Positions 3,282 through 43,314 of a stretch of 43,314 nucleotides of DNA are shown here, piece by piece. How positions within the stretch are numbered: the stretch's first letter is position 1; every line of letters begins with the position of its first letter. A model generated the notes under the pieces. It was given only the letters and a program-made list of their open reading frames with translations. It did not search any database and was not told where the DNA came from. The stretch is taken from the NCBI GenBank assembly GCA_016207275.1, contig JACQPY010000005.1, positions 1 to 43,314 on the forward strand. The letters are read 5' to 3'. A program made the position numbers and the translations under genes. Source of the DNA: Candidatus Kerfeldbacteria bacterium. Lineage in GTDB: Bacteria > Patescibacteriota > Patescibacteriia > SBBC01.

Positions 3282-3778
3282 CTTGCCATCCCGTGAGGAG
3301 CGACCACGCGCTTCCCGTTGCCCAGTACCTTTTTGGTTCCGAACGAATGCGGGGCCAGCGTGGCGAGTGTCTTGTAGATGATTCGCTTCCGGTCAGGTCC
3401 GGCAAAGCCAACGATCCTGATGCCCAGACCGAAGTCCGTTAGGAACTGCCGGCACTGGAGGCAGGGCCAGGGATCGGTCGGATTCTTGACCTGGAAGATG
3501 GCCAAGGCTTCGATGAAGCCGTCCTTGGTCAAGTCCCTACCGAGGGCCCGCTCAAGCGCGCCGTCGGCAATGGCCGTACAGACCGCTACTTCTTCGGCGT
3601 GCACCGTTTGCGACAAGGCGGCGTTTTCGACGTTGCAGCCCGGGTAGAAACGGCCGTCGAAGGTGAGCACGGCCGCCCCGACCGGGTAGTCGGAGTACGG
3701 CCGGTAAGCGAATGGCGCAGCTGATCGCGCGATGTCGATGAGCTGGCGGTACTGCCCTAACTTCACTTGGCTAAGCAT
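3278..3778 (-). CDS. cdd: cytidine deaminase
   Basis: Zinc motifs HAEE and PCLQCRQ are present. I chose the start at MLSQVKL (ATG 3778-3776) rather than the longer ORF-track start at 3859. The stop overlaps the punA start by 4 nt. Confidence 0.8.
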   Translation of the reverse strand: MLSQVKLGQYRQLIDIARSAAPFAYRPYSDYPVGAAVLTFDGRFYPGCNVENAALSQTVHAEEVAVCTAIADGALERALGRDLTKDGFIEALAIFQVKNPTDPWPCLQCRQFLTDFGLGIRIVGFAGPDRKRIIYKTLATLAPHSFGTKKVLGNGKRVVAPHGMAR

Positions 3779-3907
3779 GGTCTGCCTCGCAGGCGGAAGG
3801 GGTTGTTGATTCGGGTTGTGAGGGAGCAAAGCAGCCGCCCCCTCCGGAAAGCCGCGCAAGCACTCTACAGAAAGTTTCGGTGAATGGCAAGCTCACCGAA
3901 ACAGAAC

Positions 3908-3935
3908 TTGAAAAATCGAGAAAACGTGATATGCT
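3908..3935 (+). promoter_or_regulatory. sigma70-like promoter of the tRNA-Leu operon
   Basis: TTGAAA (3908-3913), 16-nt spacer, TATGCT (3930-3935). The predicted start is just upstream of element A. Confidence 0.4.
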
Positions 3936-3948
3936 ACTGTACTGGACT

Positions 3949-4023
3949 GCGCGCGGATGTGACCAAACTGGCATACTCCGCAGTTGTTCTCACTTTGATC
4001 GAACAGTGCGGGGCAGGCGCGCC
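3949..4023 (+). ncRNA. tRNA-derived structured element A (not a canonical tRNA)
   Basis: GCGCGC/GCGCGC closing stem, a D-loop-like AACTGGCATAC block, a 13-bp hairpin CTCCGCA-GTTGTTC / GAACAG-TGCGGGG and an 11-nt loop TCACTTTGATC. There is no T arm. Confidence 0.4.
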
Positions 4024-4035
4024 AGGATGGGTGGT

Positions 4036-4106
4036 GCGCGAGTGGCGGAACTGGCATACCCCGCACAACTCCTCGCAGAGCTCGGAGTATGCGGGGCGCA
4101 GCGCGC
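4036..4106 (+). ncRNA. tRNA-derived structured element B (paralogue of A)
   Basis: GCGCG/CGCGC closing stem, TGGCGGAACTGGCATAC (near-identical to the D arm of the adjacent tRNA-Leu), hairpin CCCCGCA-AACTCC / GGAGT-TGCGGGG and an 11-nt loop TCGCAGAGCTC. Confidence 0.4.
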
Positions 4107-4121
4107 TAGTGAGCAGTTGGT

Positions 4122-4208
4122 GCGGACGTGGCGGAATTGGTATACGCGCCAGCTTGAGGGGCTGGTGGTCGCAAGACCTTGGAGGTTCGAGTCCTCTCGT
4201 CCGCACCA
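4122..4208 (+). tRNA. tRNA-Leu (anticodon GAG), class II, CCA encoded
   Basis: Manual cloverleaf: acceptor GCGGACG/CGTCCGC, D arm GCG-GAATTGGTATA-CGC, anticodon arm CCAGC-TTGAGGG-GCTGG, long variable arm TGGTCGCAAGACCTT, T arm GGAGG-TTCGAGT-CCTCT, discriminator A followed by CCA. Confidence 0.9.
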
Positions 4209-4232
4209 ACTGCTTAGAAAGCGCAAGCTTGC

Positions 4233-4260
4233 CTGTCCCGAGCGGAGTCGAGGGAAGGGG
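4233..4260. repeat. solo left-half copy of the CTGTCA..CCGAGCGGAG palindromic element family
   Basis: CTGTCCCGAGCGGAGTCGAGGGAAGGGG resembles CTGTCATCCCGAGCGGAGCGAGGGATCTCC at 32348-32377. Confidence 0.5.
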
Positions 4261-4286
4261 CTAATGCCCGCAAGGGCTTGAGGGTT

Positions 4287-4325
4287 TCCCGCCACCTTGA
4301 TTCAAAAACTCAAATGACGGCGGGA
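4287..4325 (+). repeat. REP-like hairpin, family TCCCGCC-N25-GGCGGGA (copy a)
   Basis: 7-bp stem TCCCGCC/GGCGGGA with loop ACCTTGATTCAAAAACTCAAATGAC. Related copies lie at 11774-11811 and 22125-22163. Confidence 0.6.
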
Positions 4326-4340
4326 TCCCGTCGGACCTGT

Positions 4341-4356
4341 CCCGTCGAATGACGGG
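4341..4356. repeat. short hairpin CCCGTC-GAAT-GACGGG
   Basis: An identical 16-mer recurs at about 42517-42532 in the rRNA leader. Confidence 0.5.
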
Positions 4357-4520
4357 ATGGCGGGACAAATCCCTCCTCGCGCACCACCCGCTCTGGATAG
4401 CCAGCTTGCTTGCCCCGCACCTGAGTCGTCTCATCTGCGCTATGGTGGCATTCGTCAGTTAATCGCTGGTGGCGGAATAGCAAAAACAGCCGAACGTCGC
4501 GCGGCCGAGGTCAGGCGGAG

Positions 4521-4859
4521 TTATTTGTTACGCTCAAGTTTTTCCAAGCCGTGCGTGCGCAGGTAGTTGAGCTTGGCGCGGCGGACCTTGGCTTGGCGGA
4601 CGACTTCGAGCTTGGCAATGTTTGGCGAGTGAAGCGGAAAGATTTTTTCAACGCCAATGCCCTCGGATACCTTCCGAACCGTCATCGTGCCGTCGAGTCC
4701 GCGCCCGCCGGACCGGCCGATGACAATGCCTTCGAAAATTTGAATACGCTCTTTCTCACCTTCCTTCAGTTTCTGGTGGACGCGAACCGTCGCGCCTGGC
4801 CGAACGTCCGGCAAGTCAGCTTTTAATTTCGGTTGGTTGATTGCTTGAATGGTGACCAT
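4521..4859 (-). CDS. rplS: 50S ribosomal protein L19
   Basis: The 112 aa from MVTIQAINQ (ATG 4859-4857) match L19 throughout ([38 protein letters not shown]). The longer ORF-track N-terminus was rejected. Confidence 0.9.
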
Positions 4860-4941: not shown

Positions 4942-6042
4942 TCAGGTGAGTCCTGATTGAAGGTACGCTTTAAGCTCTCTCGGCAACGGCGCCTCGAACT
5001 CCCGCGTCGTGCCATCGAGATCCTGAAACTTTAGCCGGGCAGCATGAAGCCAAGGCCGCGACAACGTTGTCGATTTCCGGCGAGCTGGCTTGGTCGTGTA
5101 GACCGTGTCACCGACAATCGGATGACCAAGGGCTTTAAGGTGAACGCGGATTTGGTGCGTTCGGCCGGTTTCGAGTTGAATACGAAGTAGGGCGTTGCCG
5201 TTGAAGACGCGTTCGACGGTGTAGCGAGTAACGGCTTGCCGACCGCGCTCCTCCCCTCGGCTTCGCCGTATCCCCTCCCCCTTCGGCCTCCCGTTCAGGG
5301 TCTGAGGACCCCTCAGGGTCTCGAACGACGAGCTCATCTCGATGCCGAGCCCTCGATGCCGAGGCAGGGCCGAGAGGTCAGGCAGGAGGGGAAGCGCGCG
5401 CATGCGGCCATGCTGCCGCCTTGACCGTTCAATCCGAAAGTTAATGGTGCCTGATCGTTGCTTTGGTACACCGTGAACCAGGGCGAGGTATTCTTTCTCG
5501 ACGGTCCGGTTTTTGAACTGTTGCTTGAGATGCTTGAACGATGTCTGGGTTTTGGCAATGACCATCACTCCGGAAACGTCGCGATCAAGGCGGTGGACAA
5601 TCCCCGGCCGGATCGCCGGATCGTCGCCGACGGTCGTGACCGACGGCGCGCGCTTAACCAACCAGTCAATCAGCGTTGGCCCATGGACACCGGCGCCGGG
5701 GTGGACGATTAAACCGGCCGGTTTATTGACAACCAGCAGCCGCTCATTCTCAAACAGAACGGTCGGACTTGGCGCGGCCGCCGCCGGCAACGGCTGAGCA
5801 GCGACTTCTTTGATTAATACCCGATCGCCGTCTTTGAGCAGACGGTGGGCTGATACGATTCGGCCGTTGAGCAGAATTGCGCCGGCTTTAATGAGCTTCT
5901 GCAGCTGGCGGCGCGAATAGGCGGGGAGCCGGCGGGTCAGGTAGCGGTCAAGCCGTTCACCGCCATCAGTGGCGGATAGTTCAGTGGGCATGACGTTTAC
6001 GAACGAACGCTTCGGCTTCGGCGCGGGTGGAAACTTTTCCAC
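4942..6042 (-). CDS. rluD: 23S rRNA pseudouridine synthase, RluA/RluD family, with N-terminal S4 domain
   Basis: S4-like RLDRYL..., catalytic [12 protein letters not shown], and C-terminal GRTHQIRVH and LHA blocks. An alternative start at ATG 5991 (MPTEL) is possible. The gene carries an in-frame insert of about 53 aa (see repeat 5242-5400). Confidence 0.85.
5242..5400. repeat. palindromic-element-like insertion lying in frame inside rluD
   Basis: The insert encodes [53 protein letters not shown], placed between conserved RluD blocks that are normally separated by only a few residues. The DNA holds CTGAGG/CCTCAG and CCTCGGC/GCCGAGG inverted repeats and a CCTTCGG..TCAGGGT motif like the 32.3 kb and 34.4 kb elements. 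Confidence 0.5.
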
Positions 6043-7438
6043 TCAGCTGAGCGTCGCGTAACTCCTGGAGCAGTTGACCAATCCGCGGACCGCCAGCAAT
6101 ACCGAGCAGCCGCATGATATCGTCACCGCTCAGGAGCGTCTTGACGCGTTGGCCTTCGTAGCCGATGGCCTGCAGCTCGGCGAGTTGCCGTCGCAGTTGG
6201 GCGAAGCGTTTCGGCTCCTTAAATTGGCGACCAGCGTTGACGGCGTCGGGACCGAGCGAGGCGCGGCTGTCGGCCCAGGTCAGCTGTAGCAGCAACGGGC
6301 CGCGGACCGGCCTCAAGTACGTCTGCTCGAGCGTCGACGGCTTGATTGAATCGAGGTTGAGAATGTCGAGGTGGTGTTCAATGCACCAAACAATCATGTC
6401 GAGATCAACGCCAGCCGCATCGAGGCGGAGACGCTGGCCAATCTCGTCAGCAAGCTGGGCGCCGACCGGGGCATGGCGATCAAAACGGATGCGGTCGACA
6501 TGGTCGCGCTCCGGCGTTTTCTGGGTTGGCGGCTTGCCGACATCGTGTAGGAGCACGGCGACGACGAGCTGCGGCGTAAGGGTTGCTTTCGGAAAGGTTT
6601 GGGAAAAGCCCGGGTCAGTCAGCGCCATCAGGGCCAAGCGCGTATGTGTCCAGACATCGCCTTCGGCATGGAACTCGGCAGGCTGCGCGCAGCCTTTCAT
6701 GGCCGTTACTTCGGGAATTAACGTTTGAAACAAACCGTGATCATCCCACAGGTCAAAGGCTCGAACCGGATTAGCAACGAACGCCCGAGTCAGTTCGTGG
6801 GCAATGACCTCGCGCGGGGTGATGGCTTGATCGTTCAGGAGAGGCAGCTTTTCCGACATCGCGTCGGCGGTGACTGGCTCAATGGTGAAGTTGAGCTGAA
6901 CCGCAAAACGGACTGCGCGCAGGATGCGGGTGGCGTCCTCTTGAAAGCGCTCGCGCGGATCGCCGACCGCCCGGACAAGATGCTGGGCGAGGTCGGCCTG
7001 ACCGCCAAAAGGATCAACTAGTCGTTGTTTGCGTATATCCCAGGCGATGGCGTTGACCGTCAGGTCGCGGCGGGCCAGGTCGGCTTCAATCGGCAGATCT
7101 GGATCGGCCGTGATAGCGACGTCGCGGTAGCGGCCGGTGCGGAAACTCTGATCGGTCCGCGGCAGGGCCACGTCGAGCTCGCGGCCTTCAGCCAGCCAGA
7201 CCTTCAAGACACCGAACCGTTTGCCGACGCGATCAACCCGACCCAGCCGTTTTAGCACATCTTCAACCTGGTCGATCGGCAGGCCGCGAATAATCACGTC
7301 GACGTCGGTGAATGGCCGACCGAGCAAGGCGTTGCGAACCACCCCGCCGACGGCAAAGACTTCAGCCCGGGGCATCGACTCGAACAAGCTGGCCAAGGTC
7401 TGCACCAGCGGGTGTTGCTTGAGGGTGGTTAGCGGCAT
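5981..7438 (-). CDS. cca: CCA-adding enzyme / tRNA nucleotidyltransferase with HD domain
   Basis: Start chosen at MPLTTLKQ (ATG 7438-7436). Motifs GGVVRNALLGRPFTDVDV and an HD block (LLHDVGKP) are present. The 105 upstream codons of the ORF-track entry overlap the neighbouring gene and have aberrant composition. Confidence 0.8.
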   Translation of the reverse strand: MPLTTLKQHPLVQTLASLFESMPRAEVFAVGGVVRNALLGRPFTDVDVIIRGLPIDQVEDVLKRLGRVDRVGKRFGVLKVWLAEGRELDVALPRTDQSFRTGRYRDVAITADPDLPIEADLARRDLTVNAIAWDIRKQRLVDPFGGQADLAQHLVRAVGDPRERFQEDATRILRAVRFAVQLNFTIEPVTADAMSEKLPLLNDQAITPREVIAHELTRAFVANPVRAFDLWDDHGLFQTLIPEVTAMKGCAQPAEFHAEGDVWTHTRLALMALTDPGFSQTFPKATLTPQLVVAVLLHDVGKPPTQKTPERDHVDRIRFDRHAPVGAQLADEIGQRLRLDAAGVDLDMIVWCIEHHLDILNLDSIKPSTLEQTYLRPVRGPLLLQLTWADSRASLGPDAVNAGRQFKEPKRFAQLRRQLAELQAIGYEGQRVKTLLSGDDIMRLLGIAGGPRIGQLLQELRDAQLSGKVSTRAEAEAFVRKRHAH

Positions 7439-7502
7439 ACCGTACGTGTCGAGTATAGCAAAAAATAATGAAAACAACCGTGTCGCCTTGGATGTTTGGC
7501 GG

Positions 7503-8438
7503 CTAGTGGCGAGCCGGTGGCGATGGGGGCGTCCGCACGAAGGCGGCGACCAGGCGGACGCCGAGGCTGCCGAAGAGCAGGGCCACGCCGACGGCCAGCA
7601 AGGGATAGCTGACGGTCGACAGCACGTTGCGCGCCAGACTGGCAATGGCCGCTTGGGTGGCCGGCTGTAAGCCGCCGAGGGCCAGCTGGCCGACGACCAA
7701 GGCGTTGGCGCCGAGCACGCCGATGGCACCGACTGCCAGCAGCAGCACCGCACTGACCCACAGCATCGTGCTGAGCCAACGGATCTGGCGTGGCCGCTGG
7801 GGAGCCATCAGCATCAGCTCAAGCAGGCCGACGATGACGATGCCAACCAAGCTAATCGTCAGGCCGCGGCGAAACGCTTCAACGCCGACCTTAAATGATT
7901 CTAGGGCAGTGCGGATTTGATCGGTGCCGCTAAGGGGCGGTGCGTTAATGGCCTCTAAAAAAGGCGCCAGCGACTGGTTAAGATCGAGCAGGTCAATTTC
8001 ATTTGGCAACACGTTGGCGGCGGTCGCGGCCACCTGATCGGGGAGCTGCTTCTGGAGGGCGTTTTCCAGCGCCATTCGTCGGCTGGTCAAGTCAAGCGTC
8101 AGGCGCAGCGGCTGGTTGCGGTTTAGCCAGCCATCGAGCGCATCGAGATTGCGTTCGATTTCGGTTTGCAGCCAGCTCGGCTCGACCACGCTGTTGATAA
8201 TCGCAGAGAGCTGAGGTGAAAGCGCGGCTGGTCGTCCGGGAAGACCGCTCGATTTTGTTAGTTGCTGCTGCAGCTCATGGGTCAGGACTTCGTAAGCCTT
8301 GACCTTGGTTAATTCGGCTTTGAGAAAGTTGGCTCGGAGCACTGTTTCGTTGACCGATGTGCCGAGGACAAACCCAACGATCGCTGCAGCCAACAGCGGC
8401 AGCAGTAGCATCGCCACGAACTTTCGGAGCACCAGCAT
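7503..8438 (-). CDS. hypothetical membrane protein
   Basis: 311 aa with an N-terminal TM helix, a long soluble region and a C-terminal cluster of hydrophobic helices. GGGAG lies upstream of the ATG. Confidence 0.6.
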   Translation of the reverse strand: MLVLRKFVAMLLLPLLAAAIVGFVLGTSVNETVLRANFLKAELTKVKAYEVLTHELQQQLTKSSGLPGRPAALSPQLSAIINSVVEPSWLQTEIERNLDALDGWLNRNQPLRLTLDLTSRRMALENALQKQLPDQVAATAANVLPNEIDLLDLNQSLAPFLEAINAPPLSGTDQIRTALESFKVGVEAFRRGLTISLVGIVIVGLLELMLMAPQRPRQIRWLSTMLWVSAVLLLAVGAIGVLGANALVVGQLALGGLQPATQAAIASLARNVLSTVSYPLLAVGVALLFGSLGVRLVAAFVRTPPSPPARH

Positions 8439-9425: not shown

Positions 9426-9488
9426 GGGCGGGAGAATCCCGAACCCCGCGTTGCTCGTTCGGGACGGCGCCTCTCGTCCAGACTCGGG

Positions 9489-9562
9489 TGGGCGGCAGAG
9501 GACTCGAACCTCTGACCTTCACAATGTCAATGTGACGCTCTAACCAACTGAGCTAGCCGCCC
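9489..9562 (-). tRNA. tRNA-Val (anticodon GAC), CCA not encoded
   Basis: Manual cloverleaf: GGGCGGC TA GCTC-AGTTGGTTA-GAGC G TCACA-TTGACAT-TGTGA AGGTC AGAGG-TTCGAGT-CCTCT GCCGCCC A. Confidence 0.9.
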
Positions 9563-9594
9563 ACCCGAGTCTGGATTGTCAAGAATTACTTACT

Positions 9595-9678
9595 CCACAA
9601 TGCTTGCCCCGTGAAGTTGAGCGAAGCGAAACTTTTACGGGGTCAATGTGGCGCTCTAACCAACTGAGCTACGAACCT
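9595..9678 (-). pseudogene. tRNA-Val-like 5' portion with a 40-nt hairpin inserted in the anticodon loop; no T arm or 3' acceptor strand
   Basis: AGGTTCG TA GCTC-AGTTGGTTA-GAGC G CCACA TTGAC[CCCGTAAAAG...CACGGGGCAAGC]AT TGTGG. The D arm is identical to that of the intact tRNA-Val 30 nt downstream. Confidence 0.6.
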
Positions 9679-9689
9679 ATGAACCAGAA

Positions 9690-9885
9690 GGTGCGGGATC
9701 AATGTAACGCTCTATCCTGGGCTTCGGTGCGCCTCTGGCGCATACCTCAGCCCGTTCTCCCCCGCACCAGGCGCTTGCGCTTCGGTGCGGGGTCGAACCC
9801 AACTGAGTCCCGATACTCGCTCTACGGACGAGTATCGAGGATCCTCGACCGCCTCATGAGGCGGTCGGGACTAACCGCCCGTTCG
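9690..9885 (-). other. leader of the tRNA-Val operon, made of further tRNA 5' fragments interleaved with palindromic modules
   Basis: GGGCGGTTAG | 67-nt four-way module (9806-9872: AGTCCCGA/TCGGGACT closing stem plus three hairpins) | CTCAGTTGGGT | CCCCGCACC..GGTGCGGGG hairpin | GGATAGAGCG TTACA TTGAT | CCCGCACC. Confidence 0.5.
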
Positions 9886-11074: not shown

Positions 11075-11689
11075 TTACTGTAGTCGCCATTCTTGCAGAA
11101 TCTTGCGGCATGTATTGAAATTGCCGAGGTGGCAAACGGCCAAGCGAGAGGCGGTGAAGGAGAACGGTTCGTTAAGCACAGGCGTTGGCCCGACCCCGAG
11201 TGTCATGTGCGGATGATGACTCGATTTCGTTCGGAACTCATCGACCCACTTCAAGCTGCCCGTCCGGATTGATTCTCCAGAATCACGGTACCAGCCATTC
11301 TCATCTCCGGTCGCTACAAACGGCTCAAGTTTGGCTAAAAGAATATTCTGTAGTCGCTGAAAATTCGCGGGATTGCTGAGTTCAAAACCGAAAATATTCA
11401 GTCCTTCAAAGGTTTCCGCGGAAATTTTCGTGATATCAAATGTAATCGGTCTTGTGTTATTTGCGATGCTTGTGATGGCTGTCATCACTGCCGGCTGGTC
11501 AGCTGATCGAATATATTGTTGGACAAGAGTGATGTGCGGCAGGTGGGTGTCATCAAATCGAAAACCTTGTTTGGTTTCTTCCCAAAGTCGCGCGTTTAAC
11601 TCACGGCATTTTGCCATTACATCTTCCGGCGGCAGCAGAACGACGTCGATGGCGAGGGATTTTGGCATGCTGTGAATTATACCATCCAT
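11075..11689 (-). CDS. 2H phosphoesterase superfamily protein (LigT / 2'-5' RNA ligase-like)
   Basis: Two H-x-T-x motifs at the expected spacing (PHITLVQ and PHMTLGV). The start is either 11689 or ATG 11668 (MPKSLA). Confidence 0.7.
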   Translation of the reverse strand: MDGIIHSMPKSLAIDVVLLPPEDVMAKCRELNARLWEETKQGFRFDDTHLPHITLVQQYIRSADQPAVMTAITSIANNTRPITFDITKISAETFEGLNIFGFELSNPANFQRLQNILLAKLEPFVATGDENGWYRDSGESIRTGSLKWVDEFRTKSSHHPHMTLGVGPTPVLNEPFSFTASRLAVCHLGNFNTCRKILQEWRLQ

Positions 11690-11753: not shown

Positions 11754-11816
11754 GGTTCTCCCGCGGAGTGGGATCCCGCCTTCCTTGAATTGTTAAGTCA
11801 ATGTGGCGGGAGAACC
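11754..11816 (+). repeat. REP-like hairpin, family TCCCGCC-N24-GGCGGGA (copy b), with an alternative outer arm
   Basis: TCCCGCC (11774-11780) / GGCGGGA (11805-11811) with loop TTCCTTGAATTGTTAAGTCAATGT. GGTTCTCCC (11754-11762) can alternatively pair with GGGAGAACC (11808-11816). Confidence 0.6.
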
Positions 11817-11946
11817 TAGGACTGGTCGTGTACCCCGCACGATGACCCCCTTTCGGCAAGCTCAAGGTCGTCAAATGCGGGGCAAGTCCGCCCAGCATCG
11901 GAGTGAAACGACTGGTGCTGGGTAAGACGACCGCCTGGGCACTTAG

Positions 11947-12019
11947 TGCGCACCCCAGGAGTCGAACCTGGAACCACTCGTGTATAAGACGAGAGCTCTA
12001 ACCATTGAGCTAGGTGCGC
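11947..12019 (-). tRNA. tRNA-Ile (anticodon UAU)
   Basis: Manual cloverleaf: GCGCACC TA GCTC-AATGGTTA-GAGC T CTCGT-CTTATAC-ACGAG TGGTT CCAGG-TTCGACT-CCTGG GGTGCGC A. CCA is not encoded. Confidence 0.85.
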
Positions 12020-12063
12020 ACTAAGTGCCCATTGCGACGACTGCTCCTCGCCCGGCGCCTGAG

Positions 12064-12081
12064 TCCCGCCGTCCGGCGGGA
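12064..12081. repeat. minimal TCCCGCC-GTCC-GGCGGGA hairpin (core of the REP-like family)
   Basis: Same 7-bp stem as the 4287, 11774 and 22125 copies, but with a 4-nt loop. Confidence 0.5.
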
Positions 12082-21686: not shown

Positions 21687-21742
21687 GCCCCGCACCACTC
21701 CCCATTCGACTCACTCCGTTCGCTTAGGATCAGGTGCGGGGC
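21687..21742. repeat. hairpin with GCCCCGCACC / GGTGCGGGGC termini
   Basis: 10-bp perfect arms around a 36-nt loop. The same termini occur at 9758-9790 and 34381-34487. Confidence 0.6.
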
Positions 21743-21847: not shown

Positions 21848-22468
21848 TCAGCAGAGTTTTTTGATCCGCTCCCAATCCACGTACACGAATGGTGGCTGAC
21901 CATAGCGGTCTTCAAGCGCCTCCTTTTTGTAGTTGTGGATGATGTAGTCGACCGTGTTGGCCAGGCGGCTGTGAGTTTCGACGATGCGGAAGTTAGAGCG
22001 GTGTTGCCAGAACTTGCCCTTAGGAAGGGTTCGTGAAAACGTGCCCTTGATCGACCGCATGAGGTCTGACAGCGTGTACTGCTGACAAGGCGTACATCGC
22101 CGACTGGCCCCGCCATCCGACGGGGTCCCGCCGTCCTTAGAATTCTTAGATAAATGTGGCGGGAAGAGTCGACGATGTGGGAAGAGGAAGGCCGCAGGTG
22201 AGCGCCTGCACGCTGCCTCACAACGTACTCTCTCAAGAGTGCGTTGTGAGCCGAGAAGCACACCATGGCTGAGTTTTCGCACCAGCAGGTGAACGTGATT
22301 CGGCAGGATGCAGTAAGCGAGAAGATCGAAGTTTTTCAACTTACAGCACGTCTGGATGGTCTGGCCAAGAACAGTCGCCCGTTCTGGCGTGACGAAAAAA
22401 CACCGTCGATCCTGGACGTTTACGGTCACAAAGTAGATATAGTCCCCATCAACGGCGCGTTGAGTCAT
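21848..22468 (-). CDS. REP-associated tyrosine transposase (RAYT, IS200/IS605-like Y1 transposase) carrying an in-frame insert
   Basis: HUH motif LPNHVHLLV, then SDLMRSIKG, WQHRSNFRIV and the C-terminal Tyr motif VDYIIHNY. About 64 aa of repeat-derived sequence lie between the HUH block and the following conserved helix. Confidence 0.7.
   Translation of the reverse strand: MTQRAVDGDYIYFVTVNVQDRRCFFVTPERATVLGQTIQTCCKLKNFDLLAYCILPNHVHLLVRKLSHGVLLGSQRTLERVRCEAACRRSPAAFLFPHRRLFPPHLSKNSKDGGTPSDGGASRRCTPCQQYTLSDLMRSIKGTFSRTLPKGKFWQHRSNFRIVETHSRLANTVDYIIHNYKKEALEDRYGQPPFVYVDWERIKKLC
22079..22270. repeat. repeat-derived insertion inside the RAYT gene
   Basis: Contains REP-like copy c (TCCCGCC 22125-22131 / GGCGGGA 22157-22163, loop GTCCTTAGAATTCTTAGATAAATGT), hairpin CCCCGCCATCCGACGGGG and the 9-bp hairpin CTCACAACG..CGTTGTGAG. 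Confidence 0.55.
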
Positions 22469-22530: not shown

Positions 22531-22565
22531 CAATAGCAGAAACCCCAGGTTCTCCAAGCCTGGGG
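22531..22565 (-). terminator. intrinsic terminator of the small-gene operon
   Basis: On the minus strand CCCCAGG-CTTGGAGAA-CCTGGGG is followed by TTTCTGCTATTGTTT. Confidence 0.5.
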
Positions 22566-24877: not shown

Positions 24878-25582
24878 ATGCCTGACCTAACTGTTTTCTC
24901 CAAACTGGAAACCGACCTCGGGGTCACTTTTAGCCGCCGCGACCTGCTGGTGCAGGCGTTTACCCACCGTTCGTACCTGAACGAGAATCCAGGCTTCAAG
25001 CTCAGCCATAACGAGCGGCTGGAGTTTTTGGGTGACGCCGTGCTCGAGCTGATCGTGACCGAGCATCTCTACCACACCTTCCCCAACCCCGAGGGCGACC
25101 TCACCAACCTGCGGGCCAGCCTGGTCAACGCCAAGACCCTGGCCGAGGTGGCGCTGTCGTTGAACTTCGACACCTACCTGCTGCTGTCGCGCGGCGAGGC
25201 CAAGGATACGAACTCGAAAGCCCGGCACACCATCCTGGCCAACGCGGTTGAGGCCCTGATCGGCGCGATCTACCTTGACCAGGGCATGGCGGTGGTCAAG
25301 CGGTTCATTGAGCAGCACCTCCTGACCAGGCTCGACGCCATCGTGGCCGGACAGAAGTACCGCGACCCGAAGAGCACCTTCCAAGAGTTTGCCCAGAAGT
25401 ACGTCAACGTTACGCCAGCCTACAAGGTGCTGGCCGAGTGGGGGCCTGACCACGACAAGCATTTCCGCGTCGGGGTGTACTTGGGTGAGGAAGAGGTAGC
25501 CGTCGGCGAGGGACAGTCGAAGCAAGAGGCGCAGGTGGCCGCCGCCGCCGCCGCCATCACCGTCAAAGGGTGGGGCGGGTGA
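24878..25582 (+). CDS. rnc: ribonuclease III
   Basis: Signature ERLEFLGDAVLELIV, a second catalytic block NAVEALIGAIYLD and a C-terminal dsRBD. Confidence 0.95.
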   Translation: MPDLTVFSKLETDLGVTFSRRDLLVQAFTHRSYLNENPGFKLSHNERLEFLGDAVLELIVTEHLYHTFPNPEGDLTNLRASLVNAKTLAEVALSLNFDTYLLLSRGEAKDTNSKARHTILANAVEALIGAIYLDQGMAVVKRFIEQHLLTRLDAIVAGQKYRDPKSTFQEFAQKYVNVTPAYKVLAEWGPDHDKHFRVGVYLGEEEVAVGEGQSKQEAQVAAAAAAITVKGWGG

Positions 25583-30893: not shown

Positions 30894-30945
30894 GCATCAG
30901 CCCCGTACTGCAAAAATTGTGGTACGGGGTCAGCCGGATGCTGAC
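30894..30945 (+). repeat. double-hairpin intergenic module E1
   Basis: CCCCGTAC-N13-GTACGGGG followed by TCAGC-CGGAT-GCTGA. It begins 3 nt after the patatin stop and ends 25 nt before the next ATG. Confidence 0.6.
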
Positions 30946-31418: not shown

Positions 31419-31467
31419 TGCCCCGTACTACAACAGGTTTTAGTAATACGGGGTCAGCCGGAGGCTG
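31419..31467 (+). repeat. double-hairpin intergenic module E2
   Basis: CCCCGTA-N19-TACGGGG followed by TCAGCC-GGA-GGCTGA. Confidence 0.6.
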
Positions 31468-31492
31468 ATTGTTCTCTATGCGGAGGTGACGA

Positions 31493-31675: not shown

Positions 31676-31687
31676 CTGAGTCAGCCC

Positions 31688-31735
31688 CGTGCTACGTTGG
31701 GTGCGGGGCAGGCCGGATGCTGATTCGTGTCGTAC
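31688..31735 (+). repeat. double-hairpin intergenic module E3
   Basis: CCCCGTGC-N8-GTGCGGGG followed by CAGGCCGGATGCTGA. The 5' GAGTCAGC can alternatively pair with GCTGATTC. Confidence 0.6.
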
Positions 31736-32332: not shown

Positions 32333-32439
32333 CTCCCCGCTCCCATTCTGTCATCCCGAGCGGAGCGAGGGATCTCCACACAAACTGCGGTGTGTTGGAG
32401 ACCCTTCGACTTCGTCTCAGGGTGACAGGGGGCGGGGAG
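32333..32439. repeat. 107-nt nested palindromic element (copy P1)
   Basis: Outer arms CTCCCCGC / GCGGGGAG. Inner 31-nt arms CTGTCATCCCGAGCGGAGCGAGGGATCTCC / GGAGACCCTTCGACTTCGTCTCAGGGTGACAG. Confidence 0.7.
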
Positions 32440-32474
32440 TTGCTGTATCCAGTAATGAGGAATACCCTGAAATC

Positions 32475-36245: not shown

Positions 36246-36510
36246 CTGGCTACGCGCCGGGGACTACCCCGTACCGTCACCTCGAGCAACGCGAGAGGTC
36301 TCATTTTCATCGGGATTTCTCGCTACACTCGAAATGACGGCTTTTTTTGGGGTCCGGCGCAAGCGGGTTGACGTCGGCTAGGAGCCGCTGGTACCCTGGG
36401 TAGTATCCACGAGCTGGGGAAGGGGCAGGAATCTCCGCTGTACCCGAGGTCGACAGACTCGCTGGCAATGATAGTTCGAACTGTACGGTAACGAATCTAC
36501 TGAGCACTGT

Positions 36511-41860: not shown

Positions 41861-42061
41861 TCCGCTGCGCCTTGATGATTCGACGCAGCAGATTTGGTTC
41901 CGAAGTTGGAACGCCTGAATCTAACAGCAATGGCAGGGAAAGTCAAGGCCGCCTCCCCTTGTCCTTCGCGTAAAGCGACGTGGTCGCCACGCGACTTTAC
42001 GTCGGACAATCCCCTCCACACTGTGGAGGGGAGGCCGCAGAGCGGCGGGGAGGGAGAAGCC

Positions 42062-42090
42062 TTGACAGGCTGTCAAATCTGGGTTATCCT
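42062..42090 (+). promoter_or_regulatory. candidate rRNA operon promoter
   Basis: TTGACA, 17-nt spacer, TATCCT, about 770 nt upstream of the 16S 5' end. Confidence 0.4.
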
Positions 42091-42856
42091 CACATTGTCG
42101 ATAATTATTGTCGTTCCCCGCGTCTGCGGGGACCCATCAACAAGGAGACGATAGATTCGGCACTACACATTTGCGCACATTGAACTGAACTGATCCCAGC
42201 TCAAGGCTGGGAAGAGAAGACAGGGATTGCTGAAGTTTTGGCACTCACTGTTTTTGTTTGCCAGGCGAGCCAAAGGCCTTTGGCTCTTAGTTCCCTCGCC
42301 TCAGCACGAAGTAAATTCGTGCTTCGGCCCGAGCCGATCCACATTAGTTGCTGCTCACCACCGGTGACTAGACAAGTGATGTGAATCCTGGATCCACGAG
42401 GATGCCAGTGGTCTCAATGGGACCCTTCGTCCGCAGTAGCGGAACTCAGGGTTTCAGTCGAGGCCCCGCCTCTCCTGAAATTTGACAACTGAAGTGCGGT
42501 AAGGAAACTCCGTAAATCCCGTCGAATGACGGGACACGGGGTAAAGAGCCCCCTGTACCAGTCGCCCGCCATTCGGCGTGGCTCCGGTGCAGGGTTAGAC
42601 GTGATCGTCGGAGCAGCGAGGGTTGAGTTTCAGGGCCAGGGCACCCATAAAATTCTTTAGGAATTTTATGGGAACCCGCCAGAGCGTTTTTTATAGCTCG
42701 TTTGGATTCCTGCTCCCCTCACTCCTCCGACGGTCCGTCACCAAGTCAATTCTAAACGGTCTTAAGCGATTCCCCCGTCATCCTCGTGATGATGTCTCAA
42801 GTGAATCGCGCCGCGGCTGGGTCCCCCGATCAAGTCGGGGGTAACCACCGCGGGTC

Positions 42857-43314
<458 letters not shown>

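Follow-up and report, generated by a model that had tools for sequence, protein, structure and literature searches.

Hairpin-bearing units upstream of tRNA-Leu(GAG) in a Candidatus Kerfeldbacteria genome are probable remnants of earlier tRNA-Leu genes nested around the living one

Results

Two hairpin-bearing units precede the tRNA-Leu(GAG) gene

The DNA analysed here, referred to throughout as the window, comprises positions 1 to 43,314 of contig JACQPY010000005.1 from a Candidatus Kerfeldbacteria bacterium (assembly GCA_016207275.1), and this report concerns the region surrounding its tRNA-Leu(GAG) gene. An earlier reading made from the letters alone (the sequence-only reading) had described two tandem structured elements, here called copies A and B, between a TTGAAA-16-TATGCT promoter and this gene, and all of these features are present as described. 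The promoter-like site, which carries a TG extension, occupies 3908-3935; it is one of two such sites found in a consensus scan of 3700-4600, as compared to 0.2 expected from shuffled sequence, and no terminator-like site was found in the scan of the plus strand at this locus. Copy A (3949-4025), copy B (4036-4109) and the living tRNA-Leu(GAG) gene (4122-4208, acceptor strand GCGGACG) follow, all of them, like the promoter-like site and every other feature of the locus given below, on the plus strand. The three units start at an even spacing of 86-87 nt (3949, 4036 and 4122), with gaps of 10 nt between A and B and 12 nt between B and the tRNA. The starts of both elements agree with those first reported, and their ends run 2-3 nt further, to include CGCGCCAG at 4018-4025 and CGCGCTAG at 4102-4109. 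The living gene is the sole ARAGORN call in the region and matches the Rfam tRNA model with 54 bits. As the sequence-only reading had stated, neither copy is a tRNA by standard models: ARAGORN calls neither, and a search of 3800-4500 gave no Rfam match for A or B, including to the tRNA model, at the gathering threshold or at E<=10. The interval 3949-4109 is without a 3' acceptor strand, an anticodon arm or a T arm, so that neither A nor B has on its own the parts that define a tRNA.

Alignment to the tRNA and exact parsing revealed what the copies are made of. Each consists of tRNA-Leu positions 1-22, an insert of 42-43 nt, and tRNA positions 23-30, with the insert, a 38-nt palindrome plus a 4-5-nt tail, lying between the D loop and the D stem. 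In copy A, a decayed 5' part (A5, 3949-3975; acceptor 5' strand and D arm, roughly positions 1-22, collinear with tRNA-Leu and containing AACTGGCATA) is followed by palindrome H_A at 3976-4017, a 38-nt hairpin (3976-4013) with the tail CAGG located at tRNA position 22/23 and sharing the 38-nt architecture of eight other units. Positions 23-30 of A, CGCGCCAG, run from the 3' strand of the D stem through G26 into the anticodon stem; they are identical to 4145-4152 of the living tRNA, and copy A breaks off with them. Copy B begins with positions 1-22 (B5, 4036-4058), in which the acceptor 5' strand GCGCGAG precedes the D arm and whose allele matches the living tRNA-Leu of two relatives, L001 and L026 (L numbers denote sequences from other genomes, introduced below). 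Palindrome H_B follows at 4059-4101, a 38-nt hairpin (4059-4096) with the tail CGCAG, again at position 22/23 and orthologous to hairpins of L022 and L024, and exact parsing places positions 23-30 of B, CGCGCTAG, at its end. The block AACTGGCATAC, which the sequence-only reading took to mimic a D loop, is exact in both copies (3966-3976 and 4049-4059), and the living tRNA has AATTGGTATAC at 4135-4145. Since A and B are collinear with tRNA-Leu over positions 1-22 and 23-30, the resemblance is true homology.

Folding confirmed that the hairpins of both copies pair in the bipartite form first proposed, in which an unpaired base separates 7 bp from 5-6 bp and the 11-nt loop has TC at either end. 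The fold z-scores, computed on single sequences, are modest (-2.4 for A and -1.8 for B), and for B the fold of the minus strand is as good as that of the plus strand. The closing stem GCGCG/CGCGC is also present and is formed by the acceptor 5' strand against the D-stem 3' strand. As a shared hallmark of such elements it did not survive comparison: in ten distinct homologous units from other genomes, the corresponding segments have at best 2-6 contiguous pairs. A conserved helix is not supported, and the pairing is accidental; of the structure of these units, the palindrome alone is conserved. The two strands were also considered as acceptor 5' and 3' strands, an assignment ruled out by unit 4 of L001, in which the CGCGC after the hairpin continues into an anticodon loop.

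The 3' part of old gene B lies beyond the living tRNA

The living tRNA is bordered by the leader TGAGCAGTTGGT (4110-4121), which forms a 12-bp pairing with 4205-4216 (ACCAACTGCTTA) and extends the acceptor stem, and by a trailer (4209-4220) whose first 8 nt complete this helix. Directly downstream, at 4221-4386, lies the 3' part of the gene to which copy B corresponds, which we call B'. It resumes with positions 24-33 (GCGCAAGCTT, 4221-4230), a 7-nt overlap with positions 23-30 of B, and is then interrupted in the anticodon loop, at position 33/34, by a reversed palindrome (4231-4255) in which a GCCTG tail precedes TCCCGAGCGGAGTCGAGGGA; a homologous element occupies the same site in L026, L022 and L020. 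Positions 35-65, covering the rest of the anticodon loop, the anticodon-stem 3' strand, the variable arm and the T-stem 5' strand, extend over 4256-4286. A 79-nt insertion of two to three YCCC..GGGR palindromes (4287-4365) splits the T loop, and the remainder, CAAATCCCTCCTCGCGCACCA at 4366-4386, supplies the rest of the T loop, the T-stem 3' strand, the acceptor 3' strand CTCGCGC and ACCA. CTCGCGC is the complement of the GCGCGAG of copy B. Further downstream, at 4400-4439, is a fragment called A', in which GCCAGCTT (positions 26-33) is followed by a reversed, decayed palindrome, GCTTG CCCCGCACCTGA, homologous to the L001 3' remnant CCAGCTTGCCTGCCCCGCACCTGA.

Copy B and B' together make up one tRNA gene. 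When the inner cassette and the palindromes were removed and 4036-4058, 4102-4109, 4228-4230, a supplied G34, 4256-4286 and 4366-4386 were joined, ARAGORN called the 87-nt product a tRNA-Leu(gag) in which the 7-bp acceptor stem (GCGCGAG/CTCGCGC) pairs perfectly and the D stem, variable arm and T arm are in place. G34 was supplied because it is not unambiguously present at the palindrome junction, and the join made without it gave an ambiguous 86-nt call. B and B' are collinear, fold as one and have complementary acceptor strands, as a split tRNA pseudogene should. The complementarity continues outward, as the leader of B (GATGGGTGGT, 4026-4035) contains GGGTGGT, the complement of the trailer ACCACCC (4383-4389). 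The same removal of inserts rebuilds a tRNA-Leu(gag) in L019 and a tRNA-Val(gac) in L020. Because the 3' half of B, with its complementary acceptor strand and trailer, lies beyond the living gene, the locus is nested in the order A(B(living tRNA)B')A', with the living tRNA-Leu(GAG) as the innermost gene and A/A' as an older, more decayed outer shell.

Of the two interpretations that the sequence-only reading had offered, an unrecognised tRNA-like RNA class is not supported, as the D-loop mimic is homology, the closing stem is not conserved and B plus B' is tRNA-Leu(GAG). The other, tRNA-Leu paralogues carrying a CCCCGCA-type palindromic element, is essentially right except in its account of the distal two thirds. 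These were not replaced by the palindrome, which is inserted at 22/23, nor are they gone; the next tRNA gene, on inserting, cut them off from the front.

tRNA alleles switch between living and dead states among relatives

The relatives L001, L022, L024 and L026 were obtained via homologues of cdd and L19, and two DNA-pattern scans yielded 14 loci, two in named Patescibacteria metagenome-assembled genomes and twelve in metagenomes, which amount to about eight different sequences, several being copies of one sequence. The L19 protein adjoining the locus is closest to proteins of named Candidatus Kerfeldbacteria (81%) and Patescibacteria (~70%). Twelve of the 14 pattern loci are directly followed by a tRNA-Leu gene (anticodon GAG, CAG or TAG), and the other two are chance matches. 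In a k-mer map of the window, L001, L010, L015, L019 and L020, tRNA genes are preceded by 5' fragments and followed by 3' fragments.

Alleles that are alive in one genome are dead in another. The window's B allele (GCGCGAG) is the living tRNA-Leu of L001 and L026, and GCGGACG, the allele alive in the window, is found in L001 as a dead 5' remnant. The same reciprocity is seen for tRNA-Val(GAC), where the living GGGCGGC type of the window is a dead shell in L020 and the living GGGTTCG type of L020 is a dead remnant in the window. The cassette also differs in descent from what surrounds it. By the DNA identity of rplS, L022 is the closest relative of the window (82%, as compared to 72% for L024), and the hairpin 3' arm, the tail and CGCGCT are near-identical between the window and L022. 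The stretch AGTGAGCAGTTGGT plus tRNA plus ACTGC is, by contrast, 100% identical between the window and L024 and differs in L022, and the likeness to L022 returns on the right side of the cassette. Taken together, the likeness of the shell to L022 and the identity of the cassette to L024 indicate that a new living cassette took the place of another within a shell passed on by vertical descent.

Several further observations concern these relatives. The tRNA-Leu nest is inverted relative to rplS between one set of genomes (window 3949-4440, L022:350-700, L026:1150-1420) and another (L024:4340-4790, L001:5040-5900, L019). On the minus strand at L019:880-1010, a CCCCGTACCAGAGG..CCTCTGGTACGGGG helix inserted at 22/23 of the older gene directly encloses the living tRNA-Leu, which makes this a nest in single-insert form; in L001, a new palindrome at 22/23 has since killed the orthologous gene. 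The possibility that H_B and the L024 hairpin are unrelated products of hypervariability was ruled out, as ~70% identity and one compensatory pair amount to ordinary divergence.

The palindromes form a REP-like family

The hairpins compared number nine and come from six loci, in the window and five other genomes, and from two tRNA types; every one is exactly 38 nt long. The outer stem, CCCCGYA/TRCGGGG, is 7 bp long and is set off by one unpaired base from an inner stem of 6 bp, which is variable and carries the 11-nt loop TCRYNNNRHTC. The hairpin is followed by a 4-5-nt tail, CARG(C), which takes the forms CAGG, CAAG, CACG and CGCAG and is often followed by C. Among the pair positions of the nine hairpins, 116/135 are Watson-Crick, and inner-stem positions show 3-5 pair types. 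Mismatches on the sense strand include 5 G.T and 8 C.A, and this lack of a G.U bias argues against selection on a sense transcript. The orientation is regular: in tRNA-Leu 5' remnants the palindrome is at 22/23 with its tail downstream, and in 3' remnants it is reversed and at 33/34, so that the tails of both point to the inner gene, 4-11 nt from the break.

The family is not confined to the nests. Hairpins with the same arms, CCCCGYA/TRCGGGG, occur at four other sites in the window (21688-21741, 30901-30929, 31421-31453 and 31685-31708), after stop codons and before genes; two have the same CAGGC tail, and none has the D-loop block, a scatter that the sequence-only reading had itself named as evidence against its RNA elements. 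The pattern CCCGCA-N15-40-TGCGGG occurs 4 times in the window versus 0.19 expected, and there are 25 YCCC..GGGR hairpins in the 43 kb as compared to 12.1 +/- 3.2 in shuffles, ten of them within the 1.58 kb of the tRNA nests and five in the 16S leader. The family thus seems concentrated in stable-RNA loci. By these counts it consists, like repetitive extragenic palindromic (REP) sequences and REPINs, of short imperfect palindromes repeated in extragenic DNA, and, as in REPINs, inverted doublets are present, with inward-facing pairs flanking each nest break.

Outward-facing doublets reminiscent of REPINs or BIMEs lie at 36279-36335 and ~32353-32440, just after gene ends, with opposite hairpins, TCGCNNNGCTC-type loops and the outward tails GACGG and GACAG; the doublet near 36300 ends in a T run and may be a bidirectional terminator. 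Three sites (30901-30945, 31421-31470 and 31685-31720) carry a composite repeat in which TCAGCCGGAKGCTGA or CAGGCCGGATGC comes after a CCCCGT.C..G.ACGGGG hairpin, each time before a small gene with a Shine-Dalgarno-like GGAGG. The 16S leader (42010-42841; 16S starts at 42857) holds its five hairpins in short YCCC..GGGR form, of which TCCCGTCGAATGACGGGA (42517-42534), an 18-mer, is identical to the hairpin at 4340-4357 within the T-loop insertion of B'. The 458 nt at 42857-43314 align to positions 1-371 of the bacterial SSU model, leaving ~87 extra nt in the 16S 5' domain; insertions there are of a kind reported for rRNAs of the candidate phyla radiation.

Several identities for the hairpins were tried and rejected. 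They are not tRNA cassettes that have lost their tRNA, as their inner stems never carry the TGGT/ACCA that borders real cassettes, and they are not P-nucleotide-like footprints of hairpin-capped breaks, as their arms belong to a conserved family and do not copy the flanks. Integron attC sites, Xer/dif modules, IS200/IS605 ends and IS91/Helitron ends disagree with the observed orientation (tails inward, hairpins outside the cassette) and consensus. Nor do the inserts qualify as tRNA introns of the group I or bulge-helix-bulge kind, being simple 42-43-nt hairpins found only in truncated copies and not in living tRNAs.

A RAYT-like transposase gene is a candidate source of activity

A candidate enzyme for the palindrome family is encoded at 21848-22468 on the minus strand by a gene resembling the Y1 (HUH) transposases known as REP-associated tyrosine transposases (RAYTs). 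The open reading frame scores 32.5 bits against Pfam Y1_Tnp (cutoff 23) and, against the NCBIfam model REP_Tyr_transpos, E 4.4e-19 and 68.8 bits at a curated cutoff of 80; IS200 reaches only 21 bits. Its sole Protein Data Bank match is 4ER8, E. coli TnpA-REP, and it contains an HUH motif (NHVHLL) and a tyrosine in VDYIIHN. Family hairpins stand on both sides of the gene (21688-21741 and 22543-22565). The frame is open despite ~200 nt of palindromes mid-gene (22094-22250), which make up a ~70-residue insertion, and a 39-nt element, TCCCGCCAC..GACGGCGGGA, is found within it as well as at 4287-4325 and 11774-11811.

Remnants around tRNA-Val and tRNA-Ile

The two other tRNA genes of the window, both on the minus strand, were read by eye. 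Upstream of tRNA-Val(GAC) (9486-9563) are 5' remnants with palindromes, and no 3' partner was identified by this reading. The remnant within 9590-9870 (minus strand) is a pseudo-tRNA-Val 5' part with GGTTCG, a D arm and an anticodon stem; its anticodon is split at 35/36 by a 36-nt palindrome (9607-9642), and it stops near position 45; more fragments and palindromes continue to 9870. L015 (4990-5075) carries this remnant too, insert included. tRNA-Ile(TAT) (11946-12019), a gene whose anticodon is uncommon in bacteria, has both 5' and 3' remnants of an older tRNA-Ile allele: in its flanks (11774-11934 and 12032-12081), GAGCAGTCGTC lies upstream and TCGTCTTA..TACACGACCAGTCCTAGGTTC downstream, the latter split by three palindromes. 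The gene order Leu(GAG)..Val(GAC)..Ile(TAT) recurs in L015 and L021.

Leader/trailer helices border the living tRNA genes

In each of the window's three tRNA genes, leader and trailer pair across the discriminator and CCA and lengthen the acceptor stem by exactly 12 bp (4110-4121/4205-4216, 9564-9575/9474-9488 and 12020-12031/11935-11949), a T-A pair being outermost every time. In relatives the helix is 10-14 bp long, and in L011, L003, L008, L009 and L012 it has 0-5 bp. As the helices of relatives differ in sequence yet pair, the helix covaries. The gene for RNase III is at 24878-25582. Genes for RNA-handling proteins cluster around the tRNA loci (4942-7753, 11075-11689 and 24878-25582); along with RNase III they encode a RluD-like pseudouridine synthase, a CCA-adding/poly(A) polymerase-family enzyme with an HD domain, and a LigT-like 2'-5' RNA ligase family protein adjoining tRNA-Ile.

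Discussion

We consider it probable that two tRNA-Leu(GAG) genes preceded the living one at this locus, one after the other, and that copies A and B are what is left of their 5' parts, each with a REP-like palindrome inserted in it and with the old genes nested around the living one. A quite different account would make A and B members of a functional class of tRNA-like small RNAs or leaders kept by selection. Such an RNA might act as a decoy or platform for an enzyme that recognises D loops, for instance LeuRS or a factor in modification or processing, or it might help to process or stabilise the tRNA-Leu transcript. The module of TGGCGGAAYTGGYATA, palindrome, CARG and CGCGC is indeed directly upstream of tRNA-Leu in the 12 scan loci, which include distant Patescibacteria with differing GC content and Leu anticodons; a promoter-like site directly precedes the module in the window and is suggested by eye in L008 and L009; and the hairpin keeps its pairing through changes on both sides and has a conserved 11-nt loop (TCGCNNNRCTC). 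Yet selection on such an RNA is hard to reconcile with a closing stem that is not conserved, with a 7-nt 5' strand that varies freely and has no pairing partner nearby, or with the matching 3' half of B, which completes a tRNA gene. The same palindromes, moreover, appear reversed in 3' remnants, in a T loop, in a protein-coding gene and in ordinary spacers; there is neither a sense-strand G.U bias nor an Rfam match; and in L024 the orthologous unit has lost the D-arm part by deletion while the hairpin stays. A functional class therefore appears very unlikely.

Two further accounts share with ours the view that the copies are derived from tRNA genes. The remnants could be attachment sites of integrase-bearing islands or phages that integrated repeatedly into tRNA-Leu and were later deleted. 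The break falls around the anticodon stem, a region reportedly known as an integrase target, and the short duplicated segment (positions 23-30) resembles a crossover core. Partial tRNA copies displaced next to tRNA genes are, furthermore, a known signature of integrative elements (PMC9897764). In every lineage, however, only a tRNA cassette of ~111 nt lies between the halves, and a non-exhaustive Pfam scan of 28 open reading frames of the window detected no integrase domain. Both old halves are displaced around a whole new gene, whereas integrases rebuild a hybrid gene and displace one part; the 5' remnants are as regular as the 3' remnants, and the duplicated length ranges from 0 to 7 nt. This origin is, in our judgement, highly improbable. 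We would give an equally slim chance to plain tandem duplication of tRNA-Leu followed by decay, in which upstream copies were truncated and palindromes landed by chance in dead DNA. Tandem tRNA arrays are common, the 86-87 nt spacing of A, B and the tRNA is regular, and L011 has a palindrome-free 5' fragment of tRNA-Val(TAC), all of which such duplication would accommodate. It cannot, however, place the 3' half of B beyond the living gene, and the living gene differs from B in every stem and hence is no recent copy of it; the palindromes, for their part, keep to the same two positions, tails facing inward, whatever the lineage.

Against the nesting of successive genes and its link to a REP-like system stand several points of its own. 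The outer shell A/A' is too decayed to be rebuilt into a tRNA. The distant lineages L008, L009, L011 and L012 keep the 5' unit and have no detectable 3' partner, so nesting there would be an extrapolation, with loss of useless 3' halves as an assumption. The 5' unit, including the position of the palindrome, is strikingly constant across lineages, and this constancy could reflect function rather than recurrent site-specific insertion. Cassette exchange could have occurred by plain homologous recombination between strains, with the conserved shell as arms, instead of by transposition. The target duplicated at the break varies from 0 to 7 nt and fits no single known transposition chemistry; neither a fixed target-site duplication nor a conserved dinucleotide was found at the breaks. 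The palindromes have neither the GTAG nor the CGTC tag that REP and REPIN sequences carry at the 5' foot and have a 3' tail instead. The RAYT-like gene, which falls below the NCBIfam cutoff and has an insertion made of palindromes, may be inactive, and its product, encoded 17 kb from the locus, is a candidate for acting on the palindromes. Co-transcription of A, B and the tRNA is likely and, like the processing route, deduced from sequence. Finally, the way in which nests form is itself inferred.

With these points in mind, the nest of remnants suggests the following course of events. An older gene would have been split between the D arm and the anticodon loop (positions 23-33) on the arrival of a compact cassette, in which a whole tRNA-Leu gene is bordered by a short leader and a short trailer complementary to one another. 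The front of the older gene, with its promoter, would stay upstream and its back part downstream. At present, transcription would start at 3908-3935, the presumed promoter of the outermost and oldest shell, and pass through A and B as a ~180-nt leader; as the 10-12 nt between A, B and the tRNA leave no room for another promoter, this site is the sole candidate for the living tRNA-Leu. The tRNA would then be excised, the 12-bp leader/trailer helix probably serving as a double-strand processing stem and RNase P making the 5' cut, and A and B would be released as by-products that their GC-rich hairpins may make long-lived.

How the breaks arose can be approached through the enzyme. TnpA-REP of E. 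coli binds a hairpin plus its tag, cuts single-stranded DNA on either side of the hairpin and carries out strand transfer (PMC3479197). That a RAYT-type enzyme likewise cleaves and rejoins single-stranded DNA near the hairpin tails, and so makes breaks that admit cassettes, is a tentative proposal by analogy with that system. Bolder, and somewhat less likely again, is the idea that tRNA genes in Kerfeldbacteria-like Patescibacteria turn over by a dedicated single-strand-DNA mechanism composed of a RAYT-type HUH enzyme, palindromes and spliced-in cassettes. Palindromes would then insert site-specifically into the loops of tRNA genes (for tRNA-Leu, the D loop at 22/23 and the anticodon loop at 33/34), an inward-facing pair would form a docking site, and the enzyme would cut a few nucleotides from each tail and splice in a helix-ended tRNA cassette from another strain or locus. 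Were this so, the result would be an 'addictive', self-replacing tRNA gene, which kills the resident copy, supplies its own and leaves onion-like shells, and tRNA alleles would spread horizontally, independently of the genome.

If the remnants are what we take them to be, the locus records, in fossil form, how at least three tRNA-Leu genes followed one another at one site, with related remnants around tRNA-Val and tRNA-Ile of the window and around tRNA-Leu and tRNA-Val of relatives, and for the swapping of the living cassette inside an inherited shell the comparative evidence is direct. For annotation, tandem tRNA-like hairpin modules upstream of tRNA genes in genomes of the candidate phyla radiation should be read as gene remnants, and stable RNA-seq fragments of ~70-90 nt from such modules would not alone prove function. 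REP/RAYT-type systems would be extended to Patescibacteria, and in this genetically intractable group both the movement of REP/RAYT elements with its effects on the host and the replacement of essential single-copy tRNA genes in streamlined genomes become testable. Within a limited literature search, we found nothing on nested tRNA genes or on REPs in Patescibacteria, and the nested arrangement, the regular 5' remnants and the exchange of bare cassettes are not described in what that search returned.

A new structured RNA is not supported at this locus, and the nearest known kinds are REP/REPIN-RAYT systems and the tRNA fragments left by integrative elements. With the former (REP-BIME and TnpA-REP of E. 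coli, REPINs of Pseudomonas) the palindromes share short, GC-rich, imperfect form, many non-coding copies that are often inverted pairs, an asymmetric 4-5-nt tag beside the stem and a RAYT-like Y1/HUH gene flanked by family hairpins, and the known chemistry of single-strand cuts near a hairpin and strand transfer would fit breaks 4-10 nt from the tails. They differ in that the tag is a 3' CARG(C) and not a 5' GTAG or CGTC, in that the inner stem is variable while the outer stem and 11-nt loop are conserved, in their strong preference for loops of tRNA remnants and leaders of stable RNAs, and in their host, a member of the Patescibacteria. To our knowledge, work on REP and RAYT has mostly concerned Proteobacteria, and we know of no REP system that flanks serially replaced tRNA genes. 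The attL/attR fragments of integrative elements are alike in being partial, dead copies beside an intact gene, broken near the anticodon stem and with a short shared segment, but here both halves surround a complete new gene, the insert is ~110 nt, and several generations are nested.

Two other kinds of interruption offer a partial likeness. In archaea and red algae, multiple-intron, split and permuted tRNA genes are processed at bulge-helix-bulge motifs. Their non-canonical interruptions, which include the D arm, their short structured inserts, their separated parts and their complementary leaders and trailers all recall the present locus. Those genes, however, are functional and are reassembled by the splicing endonuclease, whereas the copies here are dead, with 79 nt of palindromes in the T arm of B', substituted stems and no bulge-helix-bulge motif, and a separate intact gene does the work, in a bacterium. 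Insertion sequences that target REP palindromes are also known (PMC1525189). As with these, DNA is inserted here at or between palindromes, the living tRNA of L019 lying inside a CCCCGTACC..GGTACGGGG helix and those elsewhere between two inward-facing palindromes; unlike these, what is inserted is a bare tRNA gene, with no transposase of its own and no terminal repeats beyond the acceptor stem and its extension.

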